This document shows positions 1,817 to 11,368 of a stretch of DNA of 11,633 bases, piece after piece. Source of the stretch: a virus; the UHGV virus genome UHGV-0141986; one strand, given 5' to 3'. The notes beneath the pieces are model-generated. The model was given only the letters and a program-made list of their open reading frames with translations, made no database searches and was not told where the DNA came from. The translations under genes were made by a program, and so were the position numbers. The number at the start of each line of letters is the position of its first letter. Position 1 is the stretch's first letter.

Positions 1817-2065
1817 TTCTTCCATTCCGGGACGTTACACTGTTCAGGCACCTTATAAAGCGGGTGCCGGGATTGGCGTCCTGGAAATGTTATCGGCGAT
1901 ATATGACGCGCCAGCGTTTTTTTTATCGTCTGCGTCTGCGCACACCCAAATTATGGTGGGCTGGACGGGGGCACCGAAAGGTGCGCCGGTTTCCGATAAC
2001 GCCGGTTACGCCAACCCCGTTCAGTTCACCACCAGCGAAATTCACTGTTATCGGAGGCTGCCATC

Positions 2066-3366: not shown

Positions 3367-3855
3367 ATGAGTCTGTTAAATGACGTTCAGAAATTCATTG
3401 AAGCCCATCCTGGGTGTACTTCCGGAGACATTGCGGATGCTTTTGCAGGTTACTCACGGCAGCGCGTTCTGCAGTCTGCAAGCAAGTTACGTCAGAGTGG
3501 GCGTGTGGCTCACCGTTGTGAAGGATATACACGCAGACATTTCCCGCGCCTGACTGAGAGAGCGCAGGAGCCGGAACCACAACCAGTTCGTGAAACCAGA
3601 CCTGTGCGCAATTTCTATGTCGGCACTAACGATCCCCGGGTGATTTTGTGCCTGACCCGCCAGGCTGAAGAACTGGAGTCCAGGGGCTTATACCGTCGTG
3701 CTGCAACCGTGTGGATGGCGGCATTCCGTGAAAGCCACTCCCAGCCAGAACGAAACAATTTTCTGGCACGTCGTGAGCGGTGCTTACGGAAAAGCAGCAA
3801 GCGCGCTGTATCGGGTGATGAGTGGTATCTGTCAGGGAATTACGTGGGGGCTTAA
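3367..3855 (+). CDS. PerC-family-like putative transcriptional regulator
   Basis: ATG 3367 preceded by GGGGG (3356-3360). C-terminal segment LTRQAEELESRGLYRRAATVWMAAF resembles the conserved PerC/Pch core (from memory). Stop overlaps the Dam start (TAATG). Confidence 0.6.
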   Translation: MSLLNDVQKFIEAHPGCTSGDIADAFAGYSRQRVLQSASKLRQSGRVAHRCEGYTRRHFPRLTERAQEPEPQPVRETRPVRNFYVGTNDPRVILCLTRQAEELESRGLYRRAATVWMAAFRESHSQPERNNFLARRERCLRKSSKRAVSGDEWYLSGNYVGA

Positions 3856-4478
3856 TGAGTAATAAATATTGCCAGGAGCTGGTGGAGCTGCGGAACAAAC
3901 CAGCCCATGAACTGAAGGAAGTGGGCGATCAGTGGCGCACGCCGGATAACATTTTCTGGGGAATTAACACCCTGTTTGGCCCGTTTGTCCTGGATCTGTT
4001 TACTGACGGTGATAACGCCAAATGTACCGCGTATTACACGGCGGAAGACAACGCGCTGGCGCATGACTGGTCAGAACGTCTTGCGGAGCTTAAAGGTGCT
4101 GCCTTTGGTAATCCCCCATACAGCCGCGCCAGTCAGCATGAGGGGCAATACATCACCGGCATGCGTGATAAAGGCGGGCGCTATGTTTTCCTGATCAAAG
4201 CTGCCACCAGCGAAGTGTGGTGGCCGGAAGATGCAGATCATATTGCTTTTATTCGCGGGCGTATTGGTTTTGAACTGCCTGCCTGGTTTATCCCGAAAGA
4301 TGAGAAGCAGGTGCCGACAGGCGCTTTCTTCGCTGGTGCTATTGCTGTTTTCGACAAGACCTGGAAGGGACCGGCAATCAGCTACATCGGGCGCGATGAA
4401 CTTGAGGCATGTGGTGAGGCGTTTCTGGCGCAGGTTCGCCAGCAGGCGGAAAAACTGGTCAGGGAGATGGCGGCATGA
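3855..4478 (+). CDS. Phage DNA N-6-adenine methyltransferase (Dam, phage-type)
   Basis: MSNKYCQELVELRNKPAHELKEVGDQWRTPDNIFWGINTLFGPFVLDLFTDGDNAKCTAYYTAEDNALAHDWSE...AAFGNPPYS carries the NPPY catalytic motif and the N-terminal WxTP signature. Track start 3822 overlaps the upstream gene; ATG 3855 is preferred. Confidence 0.85.
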   Translation: MSNKYCQELVELRNKPAHELKEVGDQWRTPDNIFWGINTLFGPFVLDLFTDGDNAKCTAYYTAEDNALAHDWSERLAELKGAAFGNPPYSRASQHEGQYITGMRDKGGRYVFLIKAATSEVWWPEDADHIAFIRGRIGFELPAWFIPKDEKQVPTGAFFAGAIAVFDKTWKGPAISYIGRDELEACGEAFLAQVRQQAEKLVREMAA

Positions 4479-7181: not shown

Positions 7182-7934
7182 ATGAACCTTGAAGCCTTAC
7201 CAAAATATTACTCCCCAAAATCTCCAAAATTGAGTGATGACGCACCGGCGACAGGCTCTGGTGGTTTAACGATTACGGATGTGATGGCTGCGCAGGGGAT
7301 GGTGCAATCGAAAGCACCGCTTGGGTTTGCCTTATTCCTGGCAAAAGTTGGTGTTCAGGATCCTCAGTTTGCGATTGAAGGTCTGCTCAATTACGCGATG
7401 GCACTGGATAACCCGACATTGAATAAATTGAGTGAAGAAACCCGGCTACAGATTATTCCTTACCTTGTGAATTTTGCCTTTGCTGATTATTCCAGGTCTG
7501 CGGCAAGTAAGGCTCGTTGTGAGCATTGTGCTGGTACTGGATTTCATAATGTATTGCGCGAAGTGGTGAAACACTCCAGAAGCGGGGAATCTGTTATCAA
7601 AGAAGAGTGGGTGAAGGAACTATGTCAGCATTGCCATGGTAAGGGAGAAGTCAGCACAGCGTGCAGAGGGTGTAAGGGTAAAGGTATTGTCCTGGATGAA
7701 AAAAGGACCCGGCTTCATGGCACACCTGTTTATAAGATTTGTGGGCGTTGCAATGGAAAACGGTTTAGTCGTTTACCAACCACACTGGCGCGGCATCATG
7801 TCCAGAAGCTGGTACCGGACCTGAGTGATTATCAGTGGTATAAAGGATATGCAAATGTCATTGATAAACTGGTTACAAAGTGCTGGCAGGAGGAATCTTA
7901 CGCTGAAGCACAATTGAGAAAGGTGACGAGATAA
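7182..7934 (+). CDS. Late-gene antitermination protein Q (QuuQ-like, phage 21/82 type)
   Basis: 250 aa with multiple Cys pairs (CEHCAGTG, CQHCHGKG, CRGCKGKG, CGRCNGKRF). GGAG at 7171-7174 precedes ATG 7182. Followed by a promoter-plus-terminator leader, as expected for Q. Confidence 0.85.
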   Translation: MNLEALPKYYSPKSPKLSDDAPATGSGGLTITDVMAAQGMVQSKAPLGFALFLAKVGVQDPQFAIEGLLNYAMALDNPTLNKLSEETRLQIIPYLVNFAFADYSRSAASKARCEHCAGTGFHNVLREVVKHSRSGESVIKEEWVKELCQHCHGKGEVSTACRGCKGKGIVLDEKRTRLHGTPVYKICGRCNGKRFSRLPTTLARHHVQKLVPDLSDYQWYKGYANVIDKLVTKCWQEESYAEAQLRKVTR

Positions 7935-7955: not shown

Positions 7956-7983
7956 GACGTGATGCTTGCATTTTCAAAAAATA
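7956..7983 (+). promoter_or_regulatory. Candidate late promoter PR' (-35 TTGCAT 7956-7961, 16-bp spacer, -10 TAAAAT 7978-7983)
   Basis: Located directly downstream of Q and about 55 nt upstream of a strong intrinsic terminator, the arrangement expected for a Q-modified late leader. Hexamers identified by eye. Confidence 0.35.
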
Positions 7984-8038
7984 TGGATAAAATTTTTTCA
8001 ACGATGGGCTTTGTATACCCGAAGTTAAGAAAAAGTAG

Positions 8039-8066
8039 AAAACCCGCTGATGAGCGGGTTTTTGTG
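8039..8066 (+). terminator. Rho-independent terminator (tR'-like)
   Basis: AACCCGCT (8041-8048), loop GATG, AGCGGGTT (8053-8060), followed by TTTGTGCTTT. Confidence 0.65.
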
Positions 8067-8355
8067 CTTTAAATAGGGTAATAGAGATGTTGAATCTCAT
8101 TACGGGATTCATGTTAGTTTACTTATTATTTATCGGGTGACTTTGTTTTTTGCCTGATGTTTAAAATGTTTTCTTCCAGTACAATGTCCATAGATACAAT
8201 GAGTTTGCTTATTACATTATTAGCAGAGCTATTAAGGTCAAAGTACAGCATAAGCTTTTAAAGCCAATCAACCAGTCATCAAGACAGACGGGTTTATTCA
8301 TGAAAACTCTCCATGTTTGATTCGATGGGGCTTGAAGTTAAAGCTTTAATATAGC

Positions 8356-8568
8356 TCATGAAAGGTAAACATTGGCAGCTGATGGTCCACGCAGACCATT
8401 TATCCGGCAAAATTCCACGCGTAATCCGGTGGTAATTTCTTCTGCATCGCGGAGATTGAGCGCTGAAACATGAAGCTGGACATCGATACGACCATCGGAT
8501 GGGGTTATAAGACCTTTGCCGCTTTTGCCGTCAAAGGTTTTGAGAATTCCTGTCATTTTACGGGACAA
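8356..8568 (-). CDS. cspF: Cold-shock-like protein CspF/CspH type (lacks canonical RNP motifs); TTG start
   Basis: [70 protein letters not shown]. First codon on the minus strand is TTG (8568-8566), preceded by TAAGGA; first ATG is at 8556. Divergent from cspB as in Qin. Confidence 0.85.
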
Positions 8569-8867
8569 AAAATTCCTTAATACTGATAACTTGGCGCACT
8601 ATACACACGTTCCTGAAGAAAGCTATAGTTTTTTGATGGGGTTGAAGATGGCTGGATGTCTAAAATAAACATTGCTTCATATGTTCAACTATGCGTTAAT
8701 GATTGCGTCGGTTTGAAGAACAGACGATATACGAAGTAGTTTACTAAAGCAGTTCTCATTTCAGGTGTTATTCACTTATTCCTTCTTTGAGTCTCTCCAA
8801 TTAAGTACGAAGTCGTTTCTGTTATACAAGCCATTTATGCCGAAAGGCTCAAGTTAAGGAATGTAGA
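8569..8867. promoter_or_regulatory. Divergent cspF/cspB promoter region and long cspB 5' UTR
   Basis: 299-bp AT-rich intergenic region between divergent csp genes. Long structured 5' UTRs are a known property of cold-shock mRNAs. TAAGGA SD 7 nt before cspB ATG. Individual elements not resolved. Confidence 0.35.
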
Positions 8868-9083
8868 ATGTCAAATAAAATGACTGGTTTAGTAAAATGG
8901 TTTAACGCTGATAAAGGTTTTGGCTTTATTTCTCCTGTTGATGGTAGTAAAGATGTGTTTGTGCATTTTTCTGCGATTCAGAATGATAATTATCGAACCT
9001 TATTTGAAGGTCAAAAGGTTACCTTCTCTGTAGAGAGTGGTGCTAAAGGTCCTGCAGCAGCAAATGTCATAATTACTGATTAA
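8868..9083 (+). CDS. cspB: Cold-shock protein CspB-like (CspA family)
   Basis: [71 protein letters not shown] with RNP1 (KGFGFI) and RNP2 (VFVHF) motifs. Confidence 0.9.
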
Positions 9084-9364
9084 AATTCATAGTTTGTCTG
9101 TATACGATAACGAAGAAGGCTGATGCCTGAGTGGAGATACAGACAGAGTGGTGAATATTGGATCTCTTTAATAAATAGTAAGGAGGTCCAATACATGAAA
9201 CAATGGCCAGCATATTTGGCAATAACTTAATCAGGAAAAGTATGCTAACCATTGTGGTGAAGTGCAGGTTTGCTGCATGAATAGTTTTACAGCAGAAGCT
9301 AACTGCTGGCATAGCAAAACAAAGTGCGTAAGTGGATGACTCCCACAAAAAGTACCACAATATT

Positions 9365-9391
9365 AAACCCGCTCAGGCGGGTTTTTTATTA
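9365..9391 (+). terminator. Rho-independent terminator
   Basis: AAACCCGC (9365-9372), loop TCAG, GCGGGTTT (9377-9384), then TTTTATT. Partly symmetric, so it may also serve the minus-strand small gene at 9447-9617. Confidence 0.6.
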
Positions 9392-9446
9392 TCTGCTTTA
9401 AATATGTTATTAAAATATAAAAAATACTTGTTACGAATAAAATCAA

Positions 9447-9617
9447 TCAAGCTACAGCTTTAAGATTTGTCTGGAATACTTTGTTGCAATGAGGGCAGAT
9501 CAAAAGGGCACCTTTTTGTATTCTTGAAAAACTGTGTTCTGACTCTTGGGTGCAGTTTGGGCAGGAACATTTAACGAGATAATTACGGCGTGATTTTGAG
9601 TCTTTACGTTCTGACAT
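9447..9617 (-). CDS. Small zinc-ribbon protein (56 aa, two CxxC pairs); possibly YnfQ/YmcF-like cold-shock-associated small protein
   Basis: MSERKDSKSRRNYLVKCSCPNCTQESEHSFSRIQKGALLICPHCNKVFQTNLKAVA. AGGAA SD 7 nt upstream of ATG at 9617-9615. Track start 9668 adds an implausible extension. Family assignment is from memory. Confidence 0.55.
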   Translation of the reverse strand: MSERKDSKSRRNYLVKCSCPNCTQESEHSFSRIQKGALLICPHCNKVFQTNLKAVA

Positions 9618-9835
9618 AGGCTTTTCCTGTATAAATGGCCGTATACAGTACACTAAATATGAAAACATATCTCGTATTATTATTTAACATATGATTTTCT
9701 TTTAAAATAATTACCCACATTTTTAATGTGTCTGTTTTTTAGCGCCGTTGAGAACAACGTTTGCTATAAAAACTACCCCATAGACTCCGATCTTTTCAAA
9801 CATATTGCACCATCTGTGTACATCGGGGTGAGGAT

Positions 9836-10051
9836 ATGAAATCAATGGATAAGTTAACAACAGGTATCGCCTATGGCACATCGGCTGGTAATGCTGGTTT
9901 CTGGGCATTGCAGTTACTCGATAAAGTAACTCCGTCACAGTGGGCTGCAATCGGTGTGCTGGGTAGTCTGGTATTTGGCTTGCTGACGTACCTGACAAAC
10001 CTTTATTTCAAGATTAAAGAAGACAAGCGTAAGGTTGCACGGGGAGAGTAA
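9836..10051 (+). CDS. Class II holin (phage-21 S-type pinholin) with dual-start motif MKSMDK
   Basis: [71 protein letters not shown]. Two transmembrane segments and a charged C-terminus. Starts at Met1 and Met4 mirror the S21 antiholin/holin pair. GAGG precedes the ATG. Confidence 0.9.
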
Positions 10052-10055
10052 TTCA

Positions 10056-10154
10056 ATGACACAAAACTATGAACTGATTGTGAAAGGGATCCGCAATTTT
10101 GAGAATAAAGTTGCGGTAACTGTAGCTCCTTTTCCTTCTCCGGCAACAAGTTGA
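10056..10154 (+). pseudogene. Truncated ydfR-like gene (33-codon N-terminal fragment)
   Basis: MTQNYELIVKGIRNFENKVAVTVAPFPSPATS-stop. The first ~24 residues match the YdfR N-terminus as I recall it; the sequence then diverges and terminates. GGAG at 10043-10046. Confidence 0.4.
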
Positions 10155-10340
10155 TTAGGGCTACGACTGCTTGCCTGAGTGCGATTAAATCAGCAAAAGT
10201 TTGTTTTGGTAGATTTGTGTAATCCATAGTCACCTCTGTGTTTATCAGATTGACATCCTCCTCCCGCCAGTGCCCATCACTGGTGAGGTAAGATTTAACA
10301 TATCCAGGGATTTGAAGCCGATAAATCCTGATAAATATCC

Positions 10341-11368
<1,028 letters not shown>

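Follow-up and report, generated by a model that had tools for sequence, protein, structure and literature searches.

A small zinc-ribbon gene between cspB and the holin

We analysed an 11,633-nucleotide (nt) stretch of the virus genome UHGV-0141986 (the window, meaning this whole stretch), focusing on a small minus-strand gene, ynfU, that lies between the cold-shock gene cspB and the holin gene essQ. The six-frame list of open reading frames (ORFs) contained a 73-residue minus-strand ORF at 9447–9668, in which an internal methionine codon at 9617 gives a 56-residue protein. This product, MSERKDSKSRRNYLVKCSCPNCTQESEHSFSRIQKGALLICPHCNKVFQTNLKAVA, carries two CxxC pairs, CPNC (C19/C22) and CPHC (C41/C44). 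It has a mass of 6.4 kDa and is basic (pI 9.4; 10 K/R versus 4 D/E). The gene and its neighbours are listed below.

9447–9617, minus strand: ynfU coding sequence, 56 codons plus stop (171 nt), from the ORF translation, the Pfam and NCBIfam models and the Prokaryotic Genome Annotation Pipeline (PGAP)
9621–9628, minus strand: ynfU Shine-Dalgarno sequence AGGAAAAG, read from the sequence; its AGGA core ends 7 nt before the ATG
8868–9083, plus strand: cspB, CspA-type cold-shock protein gene, convergent syntenic partner of ynfU (NCBIfam CspA subfamily, 143 bits)
8356–8568, minus strand: cspF, CspF/H-type gene, divergent from cspB (NCBIfam CspF, 158 bits against a cut-off of 111)
9836–10051, plus strand: essQ, class II holin gene, divergent from ynfU

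An earlier reading of the letters alone (the sequence-only reading) had described a 56-residue opposite-strand protein with two CxxC pairs and a good Shine-Dalgarno sequence, convergent to cspB and followed by the holin, with an AT-rich region upstream. Each of these parts was confirmed in the sequence. The gene converges with cspB and diverges from essQ, which lies 218 nt off, and GC content is 26.2% in 9618–9720, 39.8% in the ynfU coding sequence and 47.4% in the whole window. CAGGAA or AGGAG stands at the equivalent position upstream of ynfU in every genus aligned. The 56-residue start is correct because conservation across genera in the family alignment begins at MSERK, the N-terminal extensions of some database entries are unconserved, and PGAP calls the 171-nt coding sequence.

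We are almost certain that this ORF is ynfU, as two family models pass their curated cut-offs and RefSeq annotates the gene in genomes identical to the window. Pfam PF23499 (YnfU) matched over profile positions 1–49 of 49 (E = 6e-31; 106.5 bits, cut-off 27), and NCBIfam NF038384 ('YnfU family zinc-binding protein') over positions 1–51 of 52 (E = 9.5e-23; 79.5 bits, cut-off 36). A 1.8-kb query (8300–10100) was 100% identical to the chromosomes of E. coli 2013C-4282, YDC107 and several other E. coli strains, in which PGAP gives the order cspF, cspB, 'ynfU: putative zinc-binding protein YnfU', essQ. The gene call itself is nothing new, given this annotation, dedicated Pfam and NCBIfam models and a protein that has already been detected.

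The Qin prophage of E. coli K-12 carries the same gene in the same place (cspF-cspB-ynfU-essQ), with the same CPNC and CPHC knuckles and a 96% identical protein. Two substitutions, D6N and I33V, separate the window copy, which belongs to the Qin-like prophage of another E. coli strain, from the K-12-like protein. The K-12-like Qin order reads relE, hokD, rem, ydfU, ydfT (Q), cspF, cspB, ynfU, essD/Q, ydfR, rrrQ, rzpQ, cspI, ynfQ, ynfR, ynfN, gnsB.

Expression, conservation and distribution

The K-12 gene was found by Ribo-RET (profiling of stalled initiation complexes) and confirmed by immunoblotting of a fusion to the sequential peptide affinity (SPA) tag by Weaver et al. (bioRxiv 10.1101/511675). 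YnfU-SPA exceeded the other newly discovered small proteins in abundance; these authors remarked on its 'pair of zinc knuckles' and inferred zinc binding from the sequence. PIRT-Seq detected K-12 YnfU independently (PMC12350097), and a later paper lists an intergenic ynfU/cspB polymorphism. Our search of literature full text and supplements found no functional study of ynfU and no ynfU data at low temperature.

To follow the gene across species, we collected 80 ynfU loci from a scan of one genome per species, covering about 17 enterobacterial genera; since the species are related, counts over these loci are not counts of independent events. The family alignment and the 80 translations share the core RNYLVKCxCPxCxxxSEHSF[ST]RVQKGxxLxCPxCxxLF, in which C17 is dispensable. 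Across a 20-sequence alignment, C19, P20 and C22 are invariant and C44 is present in at least 90% of rows, while C41 is missing from only a few rows, including two with a frameshift. The ratio of non-synonymous to synonymous divergence (dN/dS) relative to the window copy was 0.04–0.2 where dS was unsaturated; ynfU is thus under purifying selection. Together with the family-model scores and the conservation over 80 loci, this places the ORF far above chance as a real gene. The sequence-only reading had held that a lack of homologs and of detectable expression would speak against the protein; homologs are present, and the K-12 protein has been detected.

The genera represented are Escherichia, Shigella, Citrobacter, Klebsiella, Raoultella, Enterobacter, Kosakonia, Kluyvera, Atlantibacter, Phytobacter, Yokenella, Leclercia, Silvania, Scandinavium, Superficieibacter, Franconibacter and Salmonella, and on sequence searches the family is confined to the Enterobacteriaceae. 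Of 5426 complete E. coli genomes, 1650 had the ynfU region, and almost all of these had it once only. Eight isolated temperate phage records carry the family, including Escherichia phages 2H10, Tritos and HannyBb as well as PhiR63_1 and PhiR42_1, and more distant copies were found in Klebsiella phage ST13-OXA48phi12.4 and Escherichia phage PHB10. Plasmid copies were rare (10 records). Some loci are assigned to Veillonella parvula, Vagococcus, Kocuria, a Bacillota metagenome-assembled genome (MAG) and Azospira. These lie on short contigs or MAGs and are 69–98% identical to Escherichia or Enterobacter copies; we rejected a wider, non-enterobacterial distribution, as such hits are probably enterobacterial contamination.

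Judged by sequence comparison, YnfU is a narrow family without informative distant relatives. A word-indexed search returned 31 clusters, and an exhaustive hidden Markov model (HMM) search of 1.84 billion representatives gave only 43 proteins at E ≤ 1e-3. PHROGs yielded three weak matches, all of unknown function (E = 0.003–0.009), and among the PADLOC defence families there was no match at E ≤ 1.

ynfU travels with csp genes rather than with lysis genes

We then located Csp, YmcF-like and lysis proteins at each of the 80 loci. A csp gene lay within 700 bp of ynfU in 56 of them, compared with a chance expectation of about 0.3% for a 1.6-kb span, by our own estimate from nine csp genes per 4.6 Mb. 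Lysis genes lay within 1.3 kb in only 10 of the 80. This difference identifies the csp module, and not the holin or the lysis cassette, as the durable partner of ynfU.

The surroundings were otherwise diverse. We counted 25 distinct local architectures, the commonest being 'ynfU> <cspB cspF>' and 'ynfU> cspF>', and these two arrangements (YnfU on plus with CspB on minus and CspF on plus, or YnfU and CspF both on plus) recurred over genera. Several ynfU-csp loci were plainly chromosomal, such as those of Klebsiella and Raoultella, which are flanked by a dehydrogenase, a LysR regulator and an acetolactate decarboxylase-like ORF. Phage PHB10 carries a ynfU-csp-csp cluster near its integrase, away from the lysis genes. 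In Klebsiella phage ST13-OXA48phi12.4, a 55%-identical ynfU is divergent from the holin, and no csp gene is annotated in the 6-kb stretch examined. Because architectures and flanking genes vary in this way, the linkage between ynfU and csp appears to have been maintained. Whether it reflects a functional link is, in our judgement, evenly balanced.

The synteny across about 17 genera, in which ynfU travels with csp and not with the lysis cassette, offers a concrete and testable hypothesis. It also means that the cargo of Qin-like phages includes an entire cold-shock cluster of host type. The cluster around cspB-type and cspF-type genes, often with a YmcF-like ORF, to which ynfU belongs, is probably an old one of the Enterobacteriaceae that the phage has captured. 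Within the window, the cold-shock character of cspB was borne out by a full-length match of the Rfam cspA thermoregulator at 8707–9146 (plus strand; 156.7 bits), which spans the cspB 5' untranslated region (UTR), the coding sequence and a covarying hairpin at 9090–9146 after the stop codon.

Two further observations concern the upstream side of ynfU. In many genera other than Escherichia, ynfU has a divergently oriented YmcF-like neighbour, an ORF that often lacks an ATG start; about 135–150 bp separate the two start codons. Such loci include L044, L056, L063, L064, L068, L073 and L075 (at about 3680–3870 of the locus, minus strand) and form the compact cluster 'ymcF-like< >ynfU> <cspB cspF>'. 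In addition, a family of about 75 residues (MKKVIIFFNGKPSKVITVLKGV...) is encoded on the opposite strand some 150–600 bp upstream of ynfU, in locus L080 (3626–3853, minus strand) and 25 others. Neither Pfam nor NCBIfam gave it a match, and it may coincide in part with the YmcF-like region.

YnfU is not a detectable relative of YmcF or YnfQ

The sequence-only reading mentioned that small cold-inducible proteins, YnfQ and YmcF, are encoded next to csp genes, and associated the present ORF with them. The general statement is sound. In the window-identical genomes, PGAP places 'ynfQ: cold shock small protein YmcF' directly after cspI, past the right end of the window, and ynfQ is described as 'Qin prophage, cold shock induced' (PMC11228462). 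That ORF encodes 62 residues with CxxC pairs (ITNHIHFRCPCCHGSQYRTSSFDVSDRNPFGAKCIFCKSMMITFDN...) and matches Pfam PF23641 ('YmcF-like') with 113 bits. The association with the present ORF does not hold, as another gene was meant.

As a candidate relationship, paralogy of YnfU with YmcF/YnfQ draws on a shared plan: both are small proteins (about 55–62 residues) with two CxxC pairs, their genes lie beside csp genes, often in one cluster, and a YmcF-like ORF occurs within 1.3 kb of ynfU in 16 of the 80 loci. At the sequence level it is already refuted, and we regard it as scarcely credible. The two belong to separate Pfam families (PF23499 and PF23641). Pairwise BLASTP gave E = 11, and hhalign of the 20-sequence YnfU alignment against an 11-sequence YmcF-like alignment gave a probability of 1.25% over nine columns around one CxxC knuckle. 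PF23641 was not among the best 25 of 30 Pfam matches for YnfU at E ≤ 10.

The differences extend to detail. The knuckles are spaced 18 residues apart in YnfU and 21 in YmcF-like proteins, and the conserved motifs are unrelated (SEHSFSRVQKG in YnfU, HGSQYRTSxFD...NPFGAK in YmcF-like proteins). YmcF-like genes follow a csp gene in the same orientation, as after cspI, whereas ynfU is an oppositely oriented, separate unit with its own 5' region that converges with cspB. On sequence grounds, YnfU and YmcF/YnfQ are analogous small C4 proteins, not detectable homologs.

We also note a naming clash. PGAP applies 'ynfQ' to the 62-residue YmcF-family ORF after cspI (strain 2013C-4282, locus L001, 13244–13432). 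In VanOrsdel et al. (2018), ynfQ is a 37-residue ORF between ydfJ and ydfK, and the cold-induced 21-residue ORF beside cspI is YnfR.

A probable separate transcription unit facing the late operon

The signals around ynfU and towards the Q gene are listed below.

9618–9690, minus strand: conserved ynfU 5' block, probable core promoter plus short leader, from a multi-genus alignment
9653–9645, minus strand: GTGTACTGT, window counterpart within the 5' block
9675–9668, minus strand: ACGAGATA, window counterpart within the 5' block
9618–9720, both strands: AT-rich region upstream of ynfU, 26% GC, with promoter-like hexamers on either strand
9706–9679, minus strand: TTTAAA-16-AATAAT, from a sigma-70 consensus scan
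9684–9711, plus strand: TTAACA-16-AATAAT, facing the holin, the best sigma-70-like match of the region (10/12)
9365–9384, both strands: G+C-rich hairpin AAACCCGCTCAGGCGGGTTT between convergent cspB and ynfU, from a terminator scan; T-run on the plus strand, A-run before it
7182–7934: Q antiterminator gene
7966–7993, plus strand: TTGCAT-N16-TAAAAT, pR'-like motif directly after the Q gene, from the scan and the sequence
8040–8062, both strands: strong hairpin AAAACCCGCTGATGAGCGGGTTTT with a T-run, about 45 nt past the pR'-like motif, from a terminator scan

When the upstream regions of 37 loci were aligned, conservation was limited to about 75 nt before the ynfU ATG. In other genera this block reads RAGCWA-N15-GTGTATGGT-N7-CC-ATTnAATCAGGAA-N6-ATG, and it is probably a core promoter (with TAYKGT as the -10 element and a poor -35) followed by a short leader. 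The sigma-70 consensus scan found 7 sites where 8.1 were expected from shuffled sequences; as it is not enriched, hexamer matches alone are no evidence of function. The plus-strand match at 9684–9711 may mark a promoter close to the holin; the promoter-like sites of the minus strand lie back to back with it.

A structured leader or thermosensor was not apparent in the ynfU 5' region, as the leader fold was unexceptional (z = -1.13). A 7-bp hairpin beside the ynfU Shine-Dalgarno sequence in E. coli is unconserved in other genera. The Rfam cspA thermoregulator model matches cspB only and not ynfU, whose conserved 5' block leaves room for a short leader. Downstream, the hairpin at 9365–9384 is conserved in Escherichia, Citrobacter and Superficieibacter loci and is likely to be a bidirectional terminator for cspB and ynfU, given the T-run on the plus strand and the A-run ahead of the hairpin. 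Rfam searches of the ynfU/cspB intergenic region gave sub-threshold, terminator-driven matches only. The picture is that of a real, translated gene that would be transcribed independently, from its own promoter-like 5' block and with its own Shine-Dalgarno sequence, up to a hairpin terminator held in common with cspB.

The motif at 7966–7993 and the hairpin at 8040–8062 look like a lambdoid pR'/tR' pair of late promoter and terminator. If this reading is right, Q-modified polymerase on its way to the holin would read cspB in sense and both cspF and ynfU in antisense orientation, which makes the head-on geometry of ynfU and late transcription, as proposed in the sequence-only reading, plausible. 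Read on the minus strand, the 8040–8062 hairpin could also terminate cspF.

This geometry raises the alternative that the unit matters as transcription, with convergent transcription from the ynfU promoter disturbing the late transcript, or yielding antisense RNA to it, so that the lysis genes stay quiet in the lysogen and the peptide is secondary. Besides the late transcripts that the pR'-like promoter would send antisense over ynfU, the divergence of ynfU and the holin by about 190–220 nt in Escherichia prophages, found again in the 55%-identical Klebsiella phage copy, agrees with such a role. However, YnfU is under strong purifying selection and accumulates in cells, and in 70 of the 80 species loci lysis genes are absent from the 1.3 kb around ynfU. 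Given these loci, the constraint at the protein level and the non-phage loci, interference is not the main reason for ynfU, and we consider this alternative very unlikely. The gap between Q and the holin gene S is, moreover, a general insertion hot spot for morons in lambdoid phages, and its use as a cargo site explains the place of ynfU before the holin.

In its place, ynfU resembles the self-contained morons of the lambdoid Q-S gap, such as the stx genes of Stx phages and nmpC of DLP12, which have a promoter-like region and a terminator, are of lower GC, lie between the Q gene and the holin and are expressed from the prophage. The ynfU unit shows the location between Q and holin genes, a terminator hairpin, a promoter-like block and reduced GC content, and expression from cryptic Qin in K-12 is published (bioRxiv 10.1101/511675). 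Unlike the cargo of those morons, that of ynfU is a csp-associated cluster also found outside prophages in many Enterobacteriaceae. We propose that ynfU is a moron in the Q-S gap of a Qin-like lambdoid prophage; it is not part of the lysis cassette, and its expression would take place in the lysogen and not through the late operon.

A predicted zinc ribbon and its possible ligands

An AlphaFold2 model built with the family alignment (mean predicted local distance difference test score, 74.6) placed strands at residues 14–18, 25–29, 38–40 and 47–49. The predicted fold has a zinc-ribbon pattern of two beta-hairpins, each with a CxxC knuckle, and C19, C22, C41 and C44 are predicted to hold one zinc ion in a minimal zinc ribbon. 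Foldseek searches of the PDB gave Tim15 as the best match (E = 0.11), followed by archaeal ribosome-bound zinc fingers and HVO_2753; against viral models, the best matches were unnamed zinc-ribbon proteins (E = 0.1). In a profile search of PDB sequences, eL42/L44e came top (E = 0.008–0.04), through a local match to CPxC-x4-EHSxS-x3-KG, and PA0128 had E = 0.99. These fold and profile similarities are insignificant and indicate only a generic zinc ribbon; as ribosomal zinc ribbons are over-represented in the PDB, they serve as a lead only.

Like YnfU, eL42/L44e and the archaeal HVO_2753-like or aS34-type proteins are basic C4 ribbons of about 50–60 residues. The ribosomal and ribosome-bound mini ribbons are archaeal or eukaryotic, and their similarity to YnfU amounts to E = 0.008–0.8 with TM-scores of about 0.45–0.5. 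In L44e, the second knuckle comes about 55 residues after the first, compared with 18 in YnfU.

The metal site itself suggests another role, that of a metal-handling or redox protein with a rubredoxin-like iron site, or a zinc buffer or sensor in metal homeostasis. The CPxC...CPxC knuckles do resemble those of rubredoxins, but the hallmark glycine after each rubredoxin knuckle is absent from YnfU, and no rubredoxin family was among the best 25 of 30 Pfam matches at E ≤ 10. The SProtFP authors cite YnfU as a possible metal binder, and a 2026 preprint puts ynfU among iron-metabolism genes up-regulated in lag phase and under hypomagnetic conditions. The 'iron' label is given there without evidence, and the genomic partners of ynfU are csp genes, not metal transporters. 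The most conserved part of the protein is the non-ligand SEHSFxRVQKG, which suggests a binding surface and not a metal site alone. We consider metal handling improbable.

A binding module is suggested by the basic character of the protein (pI 9.4) and by its weak similarities, which are limited to small rRNA- or ribosome-binding zinc ribbons. The strictly conserved segment RNYLVKCxCPxCxxxSEHSF[ST]RVQKG and the basic N-terminal tail would be the likely interaction surface. YnfU would act stoichiometrically, as a small zinc-stabilised module binding RNA, the ribosome, or a Csp or RNA-metabolism protein. Specific binding of RNA or the ribosome is a tentative suggestion at this stage. So is the rival in which YnfU, like several small bacterial proteins that have been characterised, acts purely by protein-protein contact, regulating one larger protein such as a Csp, RNA polymerase, a helicase or RNase, or a topoisomerase (compare the zinc-finger gyrase inhibitor YacG), with no nucleic acid as ligand; here too we are doubtful, since the similarities pointing that way are no more significant than those to ribosomal proteins. 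We hold RNA or the ribosome to be the somewhat likelier ligand and a single protein partner to be the main alternative, with metal handling and transcriptional interference less likely. As a whole, the best explanation is that ynfU is a moron encoding a zinc-stabilised binding module in the Csp and RNA-metabolism network, and we would give it about an even chance of being right.

A conserved, apparently structured RNA downstream of cspB

Between cspB and ynfU, just upstream of the 9365–9384 hairpin, lies a block of some 165 nt (9198–9363, plus strand) that is conserved in at least six genera. It apparently folds into a hairpin followed by a long-range helix (TTGTGGT/ACCACAA in the window) that encloses three hairpins. 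In a hand-made alignment of 12 sequences, 91.8% of cells could pair, compared with 26–56% in slid controls, and 7 pairs showed compensatory changes. An alignment fitted by a covariance model raised this to 13 pairs, although such fitting biases the alignment in favour of the structure. Overall, the share of pairing cells was 92–93%. G:U pairs are frequent and speak for the plus strand.

Searching the 80 sources with the covariance model recovered the block from 21, each time on the csp sense strand and 3' of a cspB-type gene. In Yokenella, the block follows cspB yet lies about 900 nt from ynfU, so the structured element belongs to cspB and not to ynfU. No Rfam family matched it, and RefSeq E. 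coli genomes, K-12 among them, carry no annotation for it. The block is a candidate for a 3'-UTR-derived small RNA or an mRNA stability element, and a covarying, unannotated RNA 3' of cspB may be more novel than ynfU itself. One further feature overlaps it:

9196–9231, plus strand: mini-ORF of 11 codons, MKQWPAYLAIT, with a perfect Shine-Dalgarno sequence TAAGGAGGT and an N7 spacer to the ATG

This mini-ORF was found only in Escherichia loci and phages. Its C-terminal residues are variable (..LAKS), and the overlap with the block lies at the 5' end of the latter, in the first helix.

A bolder interpretation, which we judge unlikely, would join these elements. YnfU and the unrelated YmcF-like protein would be two zinc-ribbon parts of a conserved, mobile cold-shock island of the Enterobacteriaceae, with YnfU as an RNA- or ribosome-binding cold-adaptation factor beside the Csp chaperones. 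The island would comprise the ymcF-like gene, ynfU, the structured cspB 3'-UTR RNA and the cspB-type and cspF-type genes, and lambdoid phages would carry it as cargo. If true, YnfU would be the bacterial equivalent of zinc micro-proteins that recent structures of archaeal ribosomes show bound to the ribosome.

Other observations

Downstream of the holin, the window (10051–10341) falls about 590 bp short of strain 2013C-4282 (locus L001, 10752–11630), to which it is otherwise identical; a ydfR remnant and a 261-nt hypothetical coding sequence are missing or rearranged. Phage HannyBb has many tiny annotated ORFs; a tRNA array that might explain them was sought there and not found. In the prophage early region of the window, two adjacent matches reached the Rfam gathering level:

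1848–1924, plus strand: isrK, 61.7 bits
1949–2036, plus strand: C4 antisense RNA, 82.8 bits, beside the isrK match

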